In this document: one piece after another, positions 4,549-22,348 of the stretch
How the letters are laid out: each line of letters starts with the position of its first letter
Position numbering within the stretch: position 1 is the first letter of the stretch
Origin: a virus
Virus genome (UHGV): UHGV-0046269
Direction: 5' to 3' (one strand)
Length of the DNA stretch: 22,539 nucleotides
The notes under the pieces: model-generated
The model's database searches: none
The model's input: only the letters and a program-made list of their open reading frames with translations
Told to the model about the DNA's origin: nothing
Program-made: the position numbers and the translations under genes

Positions 4549-4606
4549 AAAAAGGGCGGCAGAGCAGTCACGGAGTAAAACTGATACCGCCAAACGTCAC
4601 CAGAAA
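4549..4606 (-). ncRNA. dicF: DicF small RNA (antisense regulator of ftsZ and other mRNAs) with intrinsic terminator
   Basis: Reverse complement of 4554..4606 reads TTTCTGGTGACGTTTGGCGGTATCAGTTTTACTCCGTGACTGCTCTGCCGCCC, which matches the DicF sequence as I recall it, followed by a T-tract (4549..4553). Located between ydfC and dicB as in Qin. Confidence 0.85.
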
Positions 4607-9256: not shown

Positions 9257-9360
9257 NNNNNNNNNNNNNNNNNNNNNNNNNNNNNNNNNNNNNNNNNNNN
9301 NNNNNNNNNNNNNNNNNNNNNNNNNNNNNNNNNNNNNNNNNNNNNNNNNNNNNNNNNNNN
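9257..9360. other. Assembly gap (104 N) splitting a GNRA-type hairpin
   Basis: Run of N. Left flank ends CCGCCCGAAAGG and right flank starts CCGAAAGGGCGG; both are parts of one 16-mer hairpin CCGCCCGAAAGGGCGG with an 8-nt overlap, consistent with a scaffold join. Confidence 0.7.
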
Positions 9361-9379
9361 CCGAAAGGGCGGTAGTTAA

Positions 9380-9562
9380 ATGCGAAAGTTTAAAATAATT
9401 ATTGAAACGGGAATAGCCGGTGGAGATTTCGAGGATGAATTCGAAGTGGATGATGATGCGACGCCTGATGAAATACATGACGAAGCAAAAGATATTTTCT
9501 TTAACTACTGCAATTACTCATATCACGAAATAAAAGACGAAGAGGAAGAACAAAATGGCTGA
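9380..9562 (+). CDS. Small acidic hypothetical protein
   Basis: 60 aa ORF, very acidic (DFEDEFEVDDDATPDEIHDE...DEEEEQNG); its stop overlaps the next ORF start. Confidence 0.4.
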   Translation: MRKFKIIIETGIAGGDFEDEFEVDDDATPDEIHDEAKDIFFNYCNYSYHEIKDEEEEQNG

Positions 9563-9731
9563 TTTTGGTTCAACTAAATACAACGTCAGTTTTGAAGAAT
9601 GGCATGAACTGTTAATGGACTATGCAGAGTTACGTGGTGGCAGTGCTGCTGATGCTGAAGCATGGCGTGATGATTATGAAGCAGAAAAAACTCCGGTCGA
9701 AGCATATTGTGATGAGTGGGGCGATGAATGA
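9555..9731 (+). CDS. Small hypothetical protein (58 aa)
   Basis: Hand translation MADFGSTKYNVSFEEWHELLMDYAELRGGSAADAEAWRDDYEAEKTPVEAYCDEWGDE; start overlaps the previous stop (ATGGCTGA) and its stop overlaps the next ORF start, suggesting a coupled small-gene array. Confidence 0.4.
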   Translation: MADFGSTKYNVSFEEWHELLMDYAELRGGSAADAEAWRDDYEAEKTPVEAYCDEWGDE

Positions 9732-10044
9732 GCGAGGTTAATTATCAGGAAGGGCATGAAACGGCGGGGCAAGCAAAAACAGTGGCATGGCGATATCGCT
9801 ACGTGAAAAAAAAGGCGTTACGGACTTTCAGGGGAAGTAGTGGTCTGGTGACTGGAAATATGTACCGAAAAAAGAGGATTGTAACGACAGGCCGAACTAT
9901 GAAATTCAGGCCTTATTCACTGCCCCGCCAGTCCCGGTTACATCAGAAGAACTGGTTAAAGCTGTGCACTTTTATGAACAACTAAAACGCGAAAATCCAC
10001 CAGCATCCGGAAACCTGATTACAGATTCCCAGATAAGGCAATGA
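9728..10044 (+). pseudogene. Gene interrupted by a frame change at poly-A tracts (frameshifted gene, sequencing error, or programmed -1 frameshift)
   Basis: Track ORF 9728..9985 turns into basic low-complexity sequence after an A8 run (9806..9813). A protein-like reading frame without any start codon runs 9841..10044 in the -1 frame (…EIQALFTAPPVPVTSEELVKAVHFYEQLKRENPPASGNLITDSQIRQ). A heptamer A_AAA_AAG sits in the zero frame at 9868..9874. Confidence 0.3.
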
Positions 10045-10214
10045 GCTACCTGGCGCAGAACGGGCTGATAAGTATGGGGAATGTTTTACGATGAATATTT
10101 AGACTAAAGAGTTTGTAACGCTATGTAAGTGATTTTTTCTGGTTTAGATATTTATATATCCGGCCAAATTGAGGTGTGTTTAAATGTAATTGCACATTGA
10201 TTGTAGGAGGAATA

Positions 10215-10394
10215 ATGAAAAACGCATTGCAGTTTTTGTTTGTTGCGTTCTGGTTGTTCGTATCATGTATGCCCATCATCTTCACAGCAAGGTATATGGA
10301 AAAAGTTGATGTTTTGATATTAATATTTGGATATATAAATGCCCTTTTTTTAGGGGTGTTCATGGCGGTCATGTGCATTGAATACTGGCGGTAA
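10215..10394 (+). CDS. Small hydrophobic membrane protein (two predicted TM segments)
   Basis: 59 aa from MKNALQFLFVAFWLFVSCMPIIF...LFLGVFMAVMCIEYWR, preceded by an AGGAGG RBS; strongly hydrophobic. Confidence 0.45.
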   Translation: MKNALQFLFVAFWLFVSCMPIIFTARYMEKVDVLILIFGYINALFLGVFMAVMCIEYWR

Positions 10395-10652
10395 ATACAG
10401 CGAACGCCATTGGTTTAGTTGGATATTTACTGTGCCGGACAAAAACGGTTTGCGGGGAAATCTTAGTTAAGTAGAATGACTGCGGGTGCTTGAGGCTATC
10501 TGTCTCAGGCATGAACACCAAAAGGCAGATAGAGAAAAGCCCCAGTTAACATTACGCGTCCTGCAAGACGCTTAACATTAATCTGAGGCCATATCTATGC
10601 GACACATAGAGATTAGCCTCTTACGGACCGAAAGGTCAAGGAGAAGCAGGCT

Positions 10653-10808
10653 ATGAAGCAGCAAAAGGCGATGTTAATCGCCCTGATCGTCATCTGTTTA
10701 ACCGTCATAGTGACGGCACTGGTAACGAGGAAAGACCTCTGCGAGGTACGAATCCGAACCGGCCAGACGGAGGTCGCTGTCTTCACAGCTTACGAACCTG
10801 AGGAGTAA
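10653..10808 (+). CDS. hokD: Hok/Gef-family type I toxin (HokD/RelF-like)
   Basis: Hand translation MKQQKAMLIALIVICLTVIVTALVTRKDLCEVRIRTGQTEVAVFTAYEPEE (51 aa) fits the Hok/Gef family. A short upstream ORF (10597..10656) ends with TGA overlapping the hok ATG (mok-like coupling). Confidence 0.85.
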   Translation: MKQQKAMLIALIVICLTVIVTALVTRKDLCEVRIRTGQTEVAVFTAYEPEE

Positions 10809-10876
10809 GAGACCTGGCGGGGGAGAAATCCCTCGCCACCTCTGATGTGTCAGGCATCCTCAATGCACCCGCACTT

Positions 10877-10901
10877 AACCCGCTTCGGCGGGTTTATTTT
10901 A
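10877..10901 (+). terminator. Intrinsic terminator / 3' hairpin of the hok transcript
   Basis: AACCCGC-TTCG-GCGGGTT hairpin followed by TATTTTAT, about 70 nt downstream of the hok stop. Confidence 0.6.
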
Positions 10902-11266
10902 TCTGTAAATATTTTTATAAAAATAATGCCCACACACAGCATAAAACAAAAAGTATCACAGATAAAAAAGGAGCGTAATGTGCAGATTTGTTGTTTTCCA
11001 TATTTACTCACTTTAACATAATCAATATTGATATGGTTGTTGTTTCGGTGGTTTCAAACGAGATGTTATGGTGATCTGGTAAAATTGCATAACATTAAAA
11101 TTTAATTTATCTAATCGCTTTTAATAATAAGCGTTGTGTTTATCCCAACAATCTGTTGTTTGACTTTTATTCCATTAATGTAGGGGCTTTACACTGGAAC
11201 CAGTTTATTTATACTTTATACGCCAGCCTGAACAACTGGCACCTGCTGCGCCAGCAGAGACAACCG

Positions 11267-11545
11267 ATGGCGCACGATACCAAATTACACAATTCTGATG
11301 ATTCTGCCGTCTTTGCCAGCAGGTGCGGACGGCGTTTTCATGCATTCAAATCGGACTGGTTCCAGCATCCACCATGCACTGAAGAGCAGGCTGAATGGAT
11401 AATTCAGTGTTACCGCAGGCGCGGATACGAGGTTAAAAAAGCCCTTAGCCTCGACTACCGTCACTGGATAATCTCAGTCAGATTGCCTTACTCCGAACGC
11501 CCACCGCGTCCGTCCCGCACATTCCAGCAACGCATCTGGAGGTAA
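11267..11545 (+). CDS. Hypothetical protein (Rem-like position upstream of ydfU)
   Basis: 92 aa from the internal Met MAHDTKLHNSDD of track ORF 11156..11545; its stop lies 2 nt before the DUF968 gene start. Family assignment is by position only. Confidence 0.4.
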   Translation: MAHDTKLHNSDDSAVFASRCGRRFHAFKSDWFQHPPCTEEQAEWIIQCYRRRGYEVKKALSLDYRHWIISVRLPYSERPPRPSRTFQQRIWR

Positions 11546-11546
11546 C

Positions 11547-12596
11547 GTGCGGGTATTACTTCGACCTGTTCTGGTACCGGAACTCGGGCTGGTGATCGTT
11601 AAGCCGGGCCGTGAATCCATGCCGGTATTCCACAATACCCGGTTACTGGTGGAGCCGGAACCGAAAAGCATGCGTAATCTGCCGTCCGGGGTCGTTCCTG
11701 CCGCTCGCCAGCCGCTGGTGGAAGACAAAACATTGCTGCCGTTTTTCAGTAACGCACGGGTGATTCGTGCTGCTGGTGGTGCTGGTGCATTGTCTGACTG
11801 GCTGTTGCGCCATATTAAATCCTGCCAGTGGCCACACGGCGATTATCATCACAGCGAAACCGTCATTCACCGTTATGGTACCGGCGCAATGGTGTTGTGC
11901 TGGCACTGCGACAACCAGCTGCGTGACCAGACATCCGAATCACTCGAGCAACTTGCTCATCAAAACCTGTCAGCATGGATGATTGACGTCATCGGTCACG
12001 CAATAAGCGGTACGCAGGAGCGTGAATTATCTCTGGCTGAATTATCCTGGTGGGCGGTCCGCAATCAGGTGGCGGACGCGCTACCGGAAGCGGTATTACG
12101 TCGTTCGCTGGGGTTGCGTGCGGAAAAAATCCGCTCAATGTACCGTGAAAGCGACATCGTACCGGGAGAGCAGACCGCCACCAGCATACTGAAACAGCGC
12201 ACAAAAAATCTTACGCCGCTGCTTCACGCCCACCAGCAACAGAACCCACCACAGGAAAAGACGGTGGTCAGCATTGCCGTTGATCCTGAGTCTCCGGAAT
12301 CTTTCATGAAACGACCTAAACGTCGCCGCTGGGTTAACGAGAAATACACACGCTGGGTGAAGACACAGCCGTGTGCGTGTTGTGGTAAGCCAGCCGACGA
12401 TCCCCATCACCTGATTGGTCATGGTCAGGGCGGAATGGGGACAAAATCTCACGATATTTTCACGCTACCGCTGTGTCGGGAGCATCACAACGAGCTTCAT
12501 GCGGATCCGCTGGCGTTCGAAGAAAAGCATGGTTCTCAGGTTGATTTAATTTTTCGTTTTCTTGATCACGCCTTTGCAACTGGCGTGCTTGGGTAA
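11547..12596 (+). CDS. ydfU: DUF968-family phage protein (YdfU-like) with C-terminal HNH-like Cys/His motif
   Basis: 349 aa, GTG start after a GGAGG RBS. C-terminus CACCGKPADDPHHLIGHGQGGMGTKSHD...CREHHNELH is characteristic of the family. Confidence 0.7.
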   Translation: MRVLLRPVLVPELGLVIVKPGRESMPVFHNTRLLVEPEPKSMRNLPSGVVPAARQPLVEDKTLLPFFSNARVIRAAGGAGALSDWLLRHIKSCQWPHGDYHHSETVIHRYGTGAMVLCWHCDNQLRDQTSESLEQLAHQNLSAWMIDVIGHAISGTQERELSLAELSWWAVRNQVADALPEAVLRRSLGLRAEKIRSMYRESDIVPGEQTATSILKQRTKNLTPLLHAHQQQNPPQEKTVVSIAVDPESPESFMKRPKRRRWVNEKYTRWVKTQPCACCGKPADDPHHLIGHGQGGMGTKSHDIFTLPLCREHHNELHADPLAFEEKHGSQVDLIFRFLDHAFATGVLG

Positions 12597-12608
12597 AAGA
12601 GGTGACTG

Positions 12609-12965
12609 ATGCTCATAGATTTGGTTTTACCTTACCCGCCGACGGTGAACACTTACTGGCGACGCCGTGGCAGCACATATTTTATCTCGGAGGAGGGAAA
12701 GCGTTATCGCCGGGCTGTGGCGCTTATTGTTCGCCAGCAGCAGCTGAAATTAAGCCTGTCCGGAAGGCTGGCGATAAAGGTGATTGCAGAGCCACCGGAT
12801 AAGCGTCGTCGCGACCTGGACAATATCCTGAAAGCACCGCTGGATGCGCTGACGCATGCGGGAGTGTTAATGGACGATGAGCAGTTTGATGAAATCAATA
12901 TCGTTCGTGGTCAGCCAGTATCTGGTGGACGTCTGGGGGTGAAGATTTACCCCATAATGCATTAA
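12609..12965 (+). CDS. rusA: Holliday junction resolvase RusA
   Basis: 118 aa; PYPPTVNTYWRRRG and DKRRRDLDN...DAL motifs correspond to the RusA family (compare DRRRRDLDN in E. coli RusA). Confidence 0.88.
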   Translation: MLIDLVLPYPPTVNTYWRRRGSTYFISEEGKRYRRAVALIVRQQQLKLSLSGRLAIKVIAEPPDKRRRDLDNILKAPLDALTHAGVLMDDEQFDEINIVRGQPVSGGRLGVKIYPIMH

Positions 12966-12979
12966 GAGCAGGTCAAAAA

Positions 12980-13801
12980 ATGAAACTGGAAGATTTACCG
13001 AAATACTACTCCCCAAAATCCCCTGGCCTGACCGATGCATCGGCCTCAACGTCAAAAGATGCGCTGAGTATCACTGATGTGATGGCCGCGCAGGGCATGA
13101 CACAGAATCGGGCTGAGATGGGTTTTTCTGCGTTCCTGGGGAAAATGGGCATCAGTATGAATGACAGGGCGCGGGCAACAGAATTACTGGCAGATTATGC
13201 ACTCAGTCGGTGCGATCGTGTGGCGGCGTTGAGAAAACTTCCGGCAGAAATAAAACCGGTAGTGATGCGCATTATGGCTTCGTACGCTTTTGAGGATTAT
13301 GCCCGCAGCGCAGCGAGTAAAAAGCAGTGCCCTTGTTGCTATGGGGAAAAATTTATTGAAAGCGTAGTTTTTACAAACAAGGTCCAGTATCCGGATGGTA
13401 AGCCGCCGGTATGGGCAAAGTGTACGAAAGGTGTGTATCCGTCTTACTGGGAAGAATGGAAAAAAGTCAGGGAGGTGGTAAAAGTTGCCTGTCCGGAGTG
13501 TGGCGGAAAGGGTGAGGTTTCCACCGCCTGTAAGGATTGCCGTGGGCGTGGTGTCGCCATTCACCGTGAAGAGTCGGTAAAACGTGGTATGCCTGTTATC
13601 AGAGACTGCCAGCGTTGTGGTGGTCGTGGCTATGAAAGACTACCATCAACGGAGGTATTTAATGCTATATGCGAGGTGACAAACCAGATAACACGCGCGT
13701 CATGGGAAAAAACAGTTAAGAAATTCTATGATGCGCTGGTGACCCGGTTTGATATTGAAGAAGCATGGGCTGAGCGGCAGTTAAAAAAGGTAACTAGGTA
13801 A
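12980..13801 (+). CDS. Late-gene antiterminator Q-like protein (QuuQ-like) with multiple CxxC zinc-finger motifs
   Basis: 273 aa; position between rusA and the tRNA/lysis region is the canonical Q slot; contains CPCC, CPECGGKG, CKDCRGRG and CQRCGGRG motifs. Confidence 0.65.
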   Translation: MKLEDLPKYYSPKSPGLTDASASTSKDALSITDVMAAQGMTQNRAEMGFSAFLGKMGISMNDRARATELLADYALSRCDRVAALRKLPAEIKPVVMRIMASYAFEDYARSAASKKQCPCCYGEKFIESVVFTNKVQYPDGKPPVWAKCTKGVYPSYWEEWKKVREVVKVACPECGGKGEVSTACKDCRGRGVAIHREESVKRGMPVIRDCQRCGGRGYERLPSTEVFNAICEVTNQITRASWEKTVKKFYDALVTRFDIEEAWAERQLKKVTR

Positions 13802-13944: not shown

Positions 13945-14020
13945 GGCCCTTTAGCTCAGTGGTGAGAGCGAGCGACTCATAATCGCCAGGTCGCTGGTTC
14001 AAATCCAGCAAGGGCCACCA
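13945..14020 (+). tRNA. ileZ: tRNA-Ile2 (anticodon CAU, ileX/ileZ-like)
   Basis: 76 nt cloverleaf: acceptor GGCCCTT/AAGGGCC, D-arm GCTC...GAGC, anticodon loop CTCATAA, T-arm GCTGG-TTCAAAT-CCAGC, 3' ACCA. Close to E. coli tRNA-Ile2 as I recall it. Confidence 0.88.
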
Positions 14021-14027
14021 TCACATA

Positions 14028-14104
14028 CCGCCATTAGCTCATCAGGAAAGAGCGCCAGCTTTCGAAGCTGGTTGCGCGGAGTTCGGGTCCCCGATGGTGG
14101 TCCA
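14028..14104 (+). tRNA. argN: tRNA-Arg (anticodon UCG), argN-like
   Basis: 77 nt: acceptor CCGCCAT/ATGGTGG (one G-U), D-arm GCTC...GAGC, anticodon stem CCAGC/GCTGG with loop TTTCGAA (anticodon TCG), T-arm CGGAG-TTCGGGT-CCCCG with one A-C mismatch, 3' TCCA. Confidence 0.6.
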
Positions 14105-14117
14105 TTATCGGTATTCT

Positions 14118-14194
14118 GCGTTGTTAGCTCAGCAGGACAGAGCAATTGCCTTCTAAGCAATCGGTCAGTGGTTCGAATCCAGTACAACGCGCCA
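14118..14194 (+). tRNA. argO: tRNA-Arg (anticodon UCU), argO/argU-like
   Basis: 77 nt: acceptor GCGTTGT/ACAACGC, anticodon loop CTTCTAA (TCT), T-loop GGTTCGAATCC, 3' GCCA. Confidence 0.88.
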
Positions 14195-14658: not shown

Positions 14659-15052
14659 ATACATATCTGGATTATCACCTGTTACGGTAAAAAGTGATTG
14701 CTTACTGTTTTTGTGAATGGCATTGCAGCAGCCGGATAATGTCAGTGCTGGCTGACGGTGTGCTGGTGGCAGGTGTGGTGGTTGTTGCTTTTCCGTTGCT
14801 GAAAAAGAAAACGCCAGACTGTTAGCCGGGTATCAGTTAGCGGGAGAAATTTTTAAATACTTCACAATTCAGGCGGTTGACTGTTGTCTGGTTTGCGGGG
14901 AGTTTGTTAAAAGAAACTGGCATGGTGAATCCCCCTGTGCGGAGGGGCAATCAGCGAGTAGGTATATGGGATAATCGCGGATTCAGGTGCTGGTACTGAA
15001 TTCACCGGGAGGCACCCGGCACCATGCAATGGCACATAGCGCCACTCTCCAA

Positions 15053-15078
15053 CCCCTCTCCGGAGGGGCTGTTTATAT
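15053..15078 (+). terminator. GC-rich hairpin followed by T-rich tract (possible intrinsic terminator)
   Basis: CCCCTC-TCCG-GAGGGG followed by CTGTTTATATTGATTTT; a related hairpin CCCCT-GTGCGG-AGGGG lies about 115 bp upstream (14934..14949). Confidence 0.35.
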
Positions 15079-15105
15079 TGATTTTGTCAGATGTGAGTAA
15101 ACTCC

Positions 15106-22338: not shown

Positions 22339-22348
22339 NNNNNNNNNN
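22339..22348. other. Assembly gap (10 N) at a scaffold join
   Basis: Run of N flanked by two near-identical 168-nt copies of the same terminase segment. Confidence 0.85.

Follow-up and report, generated by a model that had tools for sequence, protein, structure and literature searches.

In E. coli, the slippery heptamer A_AAA_AAG of the dnaX site is accompanied by an upstream SD-like element and a downstream stem-loop. The frameshift sites of IS911 and the IS3 family fuse two conserved open reading frames (ORFs), orfA and orfB, and they also have stimulators (PMC4066793). Provided that stimulators are present, few heptamers in E. coli are as prone to shift as A_AAA_AAG, and Sharma et al. (2014) found that heptamers free of stimulators reach only 2.1 to 10 times the background of 0.055% (PMC4066793). 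A further class is compensatory frameshifting on "savior" indels, for example at the G run of the herpesvirus thymidine kinase gene (reviewed in PMC5009743).

Here we analysed a locus in the UHGV virus genome UHGV-0046269 that carries such a heptamer; the whole stretch of DNA that was analysed, 22,539 nt long, is referred to as the window. The original prediction left three readings of this locus side by side, which were a dnaX-like programmed -1 frameshift, a frameshift pseudogene, and a homopolymer sequencing error. The second of these is the correct one, the damage consisting of a +2 expansion of a homopolymer, a nonsense codon, and a frame-breaking 3' deletion. With a probability of about 95%, positions 9728-10094 are the pseudogene remnant of a small prophage gene (PHROG 660) of a mosaic ead/Ea22-like accessory region.

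The locus shares some properties with each of the known systems. Its heptamer is identical to that of the dnaX site and has the correct phase with respect to the upstream ATG frame, but the locus has no SD-like element upstream, stable 3' hairpin, Rfam frameshift match, or conserved layout, and its upstream "zero frame" is itself the product of an indel. As in IS911 and the IS3 family, A_AAA_AAG is found in a mobile-element context, but only a single ancestral ORF, free of stimulators, is involved at this locus. As in compensatory frameshifting, a homopolymer indel breaks the gene, whose frame a slippery run might in principle restore to a small extent; unlike the herpesvirus thymidine kinase gene, this locus also has a nonsense codon and a 3' deletion, the restoring path replaces the conserved core, and signs of selection were not found. 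The window shares its core module with the proteins of PHROG 660 and of ead/Ea22-like regions, but its own copy is disrupted. The same locus, 100% identical and with coordinates that correspond to window positions 9728-10044, is the RefSeq/PGAP pseudogene C_RS29890 of strain CFT073 (NC_004431.1 1337376-1337692; "hypothetical protein; frameshifted; internal stop"), and the PGAP note "frameshifted; internal stop" is also present in five other genomes. The locus is ordinary, already annotated as a pseudogene, and implies no new biology. What is new beyond the annotation of C_RS29890 is the mapping of the lesions, a series of A6, A7, and A8 alleles, and an out-of-frame C-terminal remnant that extends to 10094. 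The parts of the locus are as follows.

9728-9985, + strand: ATG ORF of 85 codons, ending at TAA 9983-9985
9728..9805, + strand: intact 5' part of the pseudogene in the ancestral frame, encoding MSEVNYQEGHETAGQAKTVAWRYRYV
9806-9813, + strand: A8 homopolymer tract (lesion 1)
9814..9985, + strand: spurious continuation of the ATG frame past A8, out of frame and R/K-rich
9838-9840, + strand: TAG nonsense codon in the ancestral frame (lesion 2)
9841..10007, + strand: ancestral frame 3' of the TAG, with the conserved core module of the family, WSGDWKYVPKKEDCNDRPNYEIQALFTAPPVPVTSEELVKAVHFYEQLKRENPPAS
9868-9874, + strand: AAAAAAG heptamer, phased CG[A] AAA AAG in the ATG frame and (CCG) AAA AAA G (Pro-Lys-Lys) in the ancestral frame
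10004..10010, + strand: deletion junction CATC/CGG with CGG microhomology (lesion 3, frame-breaking)
10008..10044, + strand: short out-of-frame tail GNLITDSQIRQ, closing the open frame at TGA 10042-10044
10011..10094, + strand: C-terminal module remnant KPDYRFPDKAMSYLAQNGLISMGNVLR in the third frame, ending at TGA 10092-10094

The ATG at 9728 overlaps the stop codon of the upstream small gene as ATGA, and the segment 9728..9805 can be aligned codon for codon with the intact homologues L003, L006, and L010. Past the A8 run, the ATG ORF reads ALRTFRGSSGLVTGNMYRKKRIVTTGRTMKFRPYSLPRQSRLHQKNWLKLCTFMNN and turns basic, as had been predicted, with 13 R/K and no D/E in 56 residues. The start-less -1 frame that had been noticed is also there: with codon starts at 9730+3n, it is open from 9841 to the TGA at 10042-10044, it contains no ATG between 9841 and 10044, and the first start codon of any kind in that interval is the GTG at 9964. 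This frame is open and conserved, as expected of the protein-like frame that had been described, but it is simply the ancestral frame and not the target of a shift. This is because the tract is A6 in intact alleles and A8 in the window, so that the two extra nucleotides put the ancestral frame at -1 relative to the ATG. The alignments thus indicate that the "zero frame" past the A run is out-of-frame junk and that the "-1 frame" is the ancestral frame.

Intact relatives of the gene are common. Phage vB_EcoS-689R5 has an intact 119-aa gene at the equivalent position, E. coli STEC1589 has a 171-aa form, and strain 23AR0303 has an open form of 104 aa whose 3' end is identical in layout to that of the window. 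A protein search returned about 1010 clusters of relatives at E<=1e-3, with lengths that include 119, 148, and 170/171 aa. DNA alignments and frame translations showed that the intact homologues, whether of 119, 171, or other lengths, are all read in a single frame, and against them three lesions could be mapped in the window copy. The first is the A8 tract, a +2 expansion of the A6 seen in all sampled intact alleles. The second is the TAG at 9838, which is shared by A6, A7, and A8 alleles; intact alleles have CAG, CCG, or CTG at this site (Q, P, or L), and protein P0002 implies an ATG (M) there as well. The third is the absence of 61 nt at about 10007/10008 compared with the 171-aa allele, or of 56-57 nt compared with longer TAG alleles. 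As a result of the 61-nt deletion, all that is left of the conserved C-terminal module is KPDYRFPDKAMSYLAQNGLISMGNVLR, in the third frame, where it matches KPDCKLPDKAMDYLKRNGLINEEDILR at the end of the intact L010 allele and the C-termini of P0034/P0240. The tail GNLITDSQIRQ also terminates the 104-aa allele of L006. The heptamer site itself differs as well, with AAA AAA G (Lys-Lys) in the window versus ACA AAA G (Thr-Lys) in intact alleles. Intact single-frame homologues, mapped disabling lesions, and further lesions that vary among the TAG alleles are what characterizes a pseudogene, and all three are found here.

Another difference from the 171-aa allele does not affect the frame. An in-frame segment of 90 nt located between AATCCACCAG repeats in that allele (L010:401-920) is absent from the window at about 10003. 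The segment is flanked by these direct repeats and is missing in window-type alleles, and its loss looks like a repeat-mediated deletion or a module exchange.

The history of the tract was followed in complete genomes. Exact-match searches were done with the diagnostic stretch of 66-68 nt, from the tract to the TAG, against 5,426 complete E. coli genomes, and gave the following numbers.

TAG with A6: 476 exact matches
TAG with A7: 61 exact matches
TAG with A8: 339 exact matches
Intact, L010 type: 167 exact matches
Intact, L003 type: 241 exact matches

The TAG haplotype is present in 918 of the 5,426 genomes in all. In evenly spread samples from the intact-allele searches, all full-length matches but one were 66 nt long, which is the A6 length, with the limit that most rows in the L003-type sample were themselves of the A6+TAG haplotype (93.9% identity). 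Some of the A7 calls could be homopolymer errors of long-read sequencing, though A7 is common to 61 genomes. AAAAAAG was found in every sampled TAG allele, whatever its tract length. In A6 alleles, translation stops at the TAG, short of the heptamer, and in A7 alleles it stops at a TGA at 9849. Translation gets as far as the heptamer in A8 alleles alone, and these are also the only ones that have it in slippery phase. This restriction to the A8 alleles points to neutral drift of the tract after inactivation of the gene. Other TAG alleles have accumulated different damage: L009 is an A6 variant with a GG-to-G deletion, and L002, L007, and L008 have an additional TAG along with further indels in their 3' part. 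The allele series is a clean small example of drift in tract length that follows inactivation: the tract is essentially fixed at A6 while the gene is intact and varies between A6, A7, and A8 in alleles with a nonsense codon.

The A7 and A8 alleles also share a substitution upstream of the tract. At window positions 9776-9780, AAAAC has become AAAAA, which changes Pro to Thr in the ancestral protein (AAAACCAG to AAAAACAG) and serves as a marker of the sub-lineage whose tract became longer.

From these comparisons we infer in which order the events took place and that the gene has no function. The most parsimonious history would have the nonsense mutation first, on an A6 background, and the tract drift after it. 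The ancestor used one frame throughout, starting from the ATG at 9728. A sense codon would then have changed to TAG at 9838 in an A6 allele that also carried the Thr-to-Lys change creating AAAAAAG. Without selection on the frame, A6 would have drifted by replication slippage to A7 and A8, and other indels, such as the GG-to-G deletion of L009, would have arisen. The 3' end would additionally have lost 61 nt, leaving the C-terminal module out of frame. In the resulting allele, A8 takes the ATG frame beyond the TAG and happens to phase AAAAAAG as A_AAA_AAG. There is no sign that ribosomes are programmed to shift at 9868, and any slippage there would be a low, unstimulated background giving a protein without the conserved W-x-GDWKYVP core. 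A8 alleles may synthesize a chimeric product at a low level. The pseudogene reading does have to accept that two coincidences align in a common allele (339 genomes): the ATG frame skips the TAG, and an in-phase A_AAA_AAG leads back to the ancestral frame, which is open for 57 more codons.

A rival reading is adventitious compensatory frameshifting, in which A8 has been retained since it allows a small share of ribosomes to get around the TAG and rejoin the ancestral frame at 9868-9874, so that traces of a protein with some function are made. The geometry of this reading works, as the product would exceed the 104-aa L006-type allele by a single residue and carry a substituted stretch of 18 residues. 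A8 is also a frequent allele (339 genomes), and frameshifting of this kind on indels has been documented as a class (PMC5009743). However, the substituted segment contains the conserved W-x-GDWKYVP motif, stimulators were not found around the heptamer, the C-terminal module has already been lost, and the A6+TAG allele, which is incapable of the bypass, is even more common (476 exact matches). The frequency of A8 can be explained by clonal inheritance of the prophage. We therefore consider such adventitious rescue very unlikely; it is the one reading left that is not trivial. If it did occur, bacteria would offer a rare example of a nonsense codon avoided through an indel plus slippage. There is equally little probability in its more specific form, in which the step from A6 to A8 was a second-site rescue that skips the TAG and, through -1 slippage, makes a "pseudo-pseudogene" yielding traces of a 105-aa protein with an 18-residue patch.

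A programmed -1 frameshift of the dnaX or IS type would also use the heptamer at 9868-9874 and would give a 105-aa product that ends at 10044. The A_AAA_AAG at this position is indeed in phase with the ATG frame, as had been stated, and the -1 frame is open to 10044. The second A_AAA_AAG that had been pointed out, in the A8 run at 9808-9814, is in phase too, and a -1 shift there meets the TAG at 9838-9840. By itself, the heptamer is unremarkable and within the reach of chance: AAAAAAG occurs 13 times in the window versus 7.2 +/- 2.3 times in shuffles, and one-third of all placements are in phase. Its high propensity to shift in E. coli applies to sites with stimulators (PMC4066793), and these were searched for in several ways. 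None of the SD-like motifs GGAG, GAGG, AGGA, AAGG, and GGGG was found in the 30 nt upstream of 9868. The downstream stimulatory structure that had been considered did not appear either, as the folds of 9875-9934, 9875-9974, and 9840-9960 had z values of -0.67, -0.05, and -0.76 compared with shuffles. With the fold of 9815-9874 included, the four z values range from -0.05 to -0.76 against dinucleotide shuffles. Rfam was used both for a gathering-threshold scan of the whole window and for a permissive scan of 9650-10200; neither gave a frameshift element, the latter even at E<=10, where the sole hit, a sub-threshold nematode snoRNA, is a chance match. The lack of stimulators is thus a direct observation, as are the lesions and the allele series.

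The comparison with other alleles also argues against programmed frameshifting. The heptamer and the two-frame layout are not conserved, as the intact homologues are read in a single frame and have ACAAAAG. The alignments indicate that the heptamer is a derived Thr-to-Lys substitution that is older than, or independent of, the A8 state. The allele series already contradicts a programmed event, since the phase is right in A8 alleles only, and A6 and A7 alleles have the heptamer but never reach it in phase. Moreover, the zero frame at 9814-9867 consists of junk in place of the conserved core. The predicted product of a shift at 9868 is MSEVNYQEGHETAGQAKTVAWRYRYVKKK-ALRTFRGSSGLVTGNMYR-KKEDCNDRPNYEIQ…, with the junction NMYRKK/EDCNDRPNYEIQ… and the junction peptide NMYRKKEDCNDRPNYEIQALFTAPPVPVTSEELVK. 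In this product, 18 junk residues would stand in place of GVTDFQGK-WSGDWKYVP, which lies within the most conserved block of the family. Motifs free of stimulators reached no more than 2.1 to 10 times the 0.055% background (PMC4066793). The dnaX-like mechanism offered in the original prediction is thus not supported, given the homologues, the derived nature of the heptamer, the lack of stimulators, and the loss of the conserved core, and we regard it as highly improbable. The locus is a reminder for caution: when an open -1 frame follows an A_AAA_AAG that is in phase, the arrangement mimics recoding, yet a homopolymer indel in a dead gene can produce it trivially.

The two remaining readings have next to no probability. 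A sequencing or assembly error would mean that the real tract is A6 (or A9) and that the gene is continuous. A runs are error-prone on some sequencing platforms, and the window comes from a scaffolded draft with N runs at 9257-9360 and 22339-22348. However, A8 is present in 339 complete genomes that are identical over the diagnostic stretch 9786-9853, and many more genomes are identical over 801 nt, including the CFT073 reference and three later CFT073 assemblies, so that four independent assemblies of this strain agree. An A6 or A9 frame would still meet the TAG at 9838, and the error that had been suspected is refuted. A phase-variable (contingency) gene, in which the length of the A tract toggles expression via slipped-strand mispairing or transcriptional slippage, would fit the polymorphism of the tract among close alleles (A6, A7, and A8), but it is extremely unlikely, as no tract length restores an ORF (A6 and A9 lead to the TAG at 9838, A7 to the TGA at 9849, and A8 through junk to the TAA at 9983), almost all intact alleles have the A6-length stretch, and A6-A8 is short for an efficient switch.

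The family to which the pseudogene belongs could be identified at the protein level. The repaired window protein matches PHROG 660, a group of unknown function, with an E value of 5.5e-28, and an intact homologue matches it with an E value of 2.9e-45. The core module of the family, AWRYRYVKKGVTD.QG..W.GDWKYVPTKEDCNDRPNYEIQALF, had no hit in Pfam or NCBIfam, and a sequence search of the PDB gave only hits to designed proteins or insignificant ones and no credible relative. The same module, AWRYRYVKKGVTD…GDWKYVPTKEDCNDRPNYEIQALF, is also present in proteins with Ead_Ea22 or DUF551 domains. An exhaustive HMMER search resolved the protein into a mosaic of three modules, which span approximately residues 15-74, 60-115, and 108-171. 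These modules are found again in numerous arrangements, among them fusions to Ead_Ea22 and DUF551 domains. Mosaicism of this kind typifies the accessory genes of this region of the prophage.

Another allele of the family, P0149, has an independent frameshift further 3' and is predicted as a 122-aa protein. Its tail (…HQSRLHQKNWLKLCTFMNN; also …SRLHQKNWLKLCTFMNN) is the out-of-frame tail of the spurious ORF of the window, in the window frame of 9930-9985. As the frameshift in P0149 is independent, frameshifted copies of the gene must arise repeatedly and enter protein databases.

The pseudogene lies in a lambdoid/Rac-like E. coli prophage. Positions 9380-10180 of the window are 100% identical to E. 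coli CFT073 and to many other complete E. coli genomes, and the identity to CFT073 remains 100% over 9361-13180. Upstream are replication-region genes, a gene of the YdaT family, and a DUF977 gene, and downstream are hokD/sok, a DUF968 gene, rusA, and an antiterminator. The run of 104 N at 9257-9360 marks a scaffold join rather than masked sequence, and a copy of the 8 nt CCGAAAGG is present on either side of it, inside a GC-rich hairpin (GGCCGCCCGAAAGGGCGG in CFT073). Upstream of this run the identity to CFT073 is 96.2%, versus 100% downstream of it, and the two contigs that flank it may therefore derive from different prophage copies or mark a mosaic boundary. The second run, at 22339-22348, consists of 10 N. 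Other features located in the window are listed here.

4554-4605, - strand: DicF sRNA
10215-10394, + strand: small hydrophobic ORF of 59 aa, MKNALQFLFVAFWLFVSCMPIIFTARYMEKVDVLILIFGYINALFLGVFMAVMCIEYWR, with a strong SD, AGGAGG, at 10205-10210
10484-10808, + strand: hok/sok-type type I toxin-antitoxin, with Rfam sok at 10484-10655 (106.7 bits)
10653-10808, + strand: HokD ORF
13945-14191, + strand: cluster of three tRNAs
14891-15080, + strand: STnc100 sRNA

The 59-aa ORF at 10215-10394 has no annotation in the RefSeq entry of CFT073 and no PHROG hit. It may encode an unannotated small membrane protein upstream of hokD.
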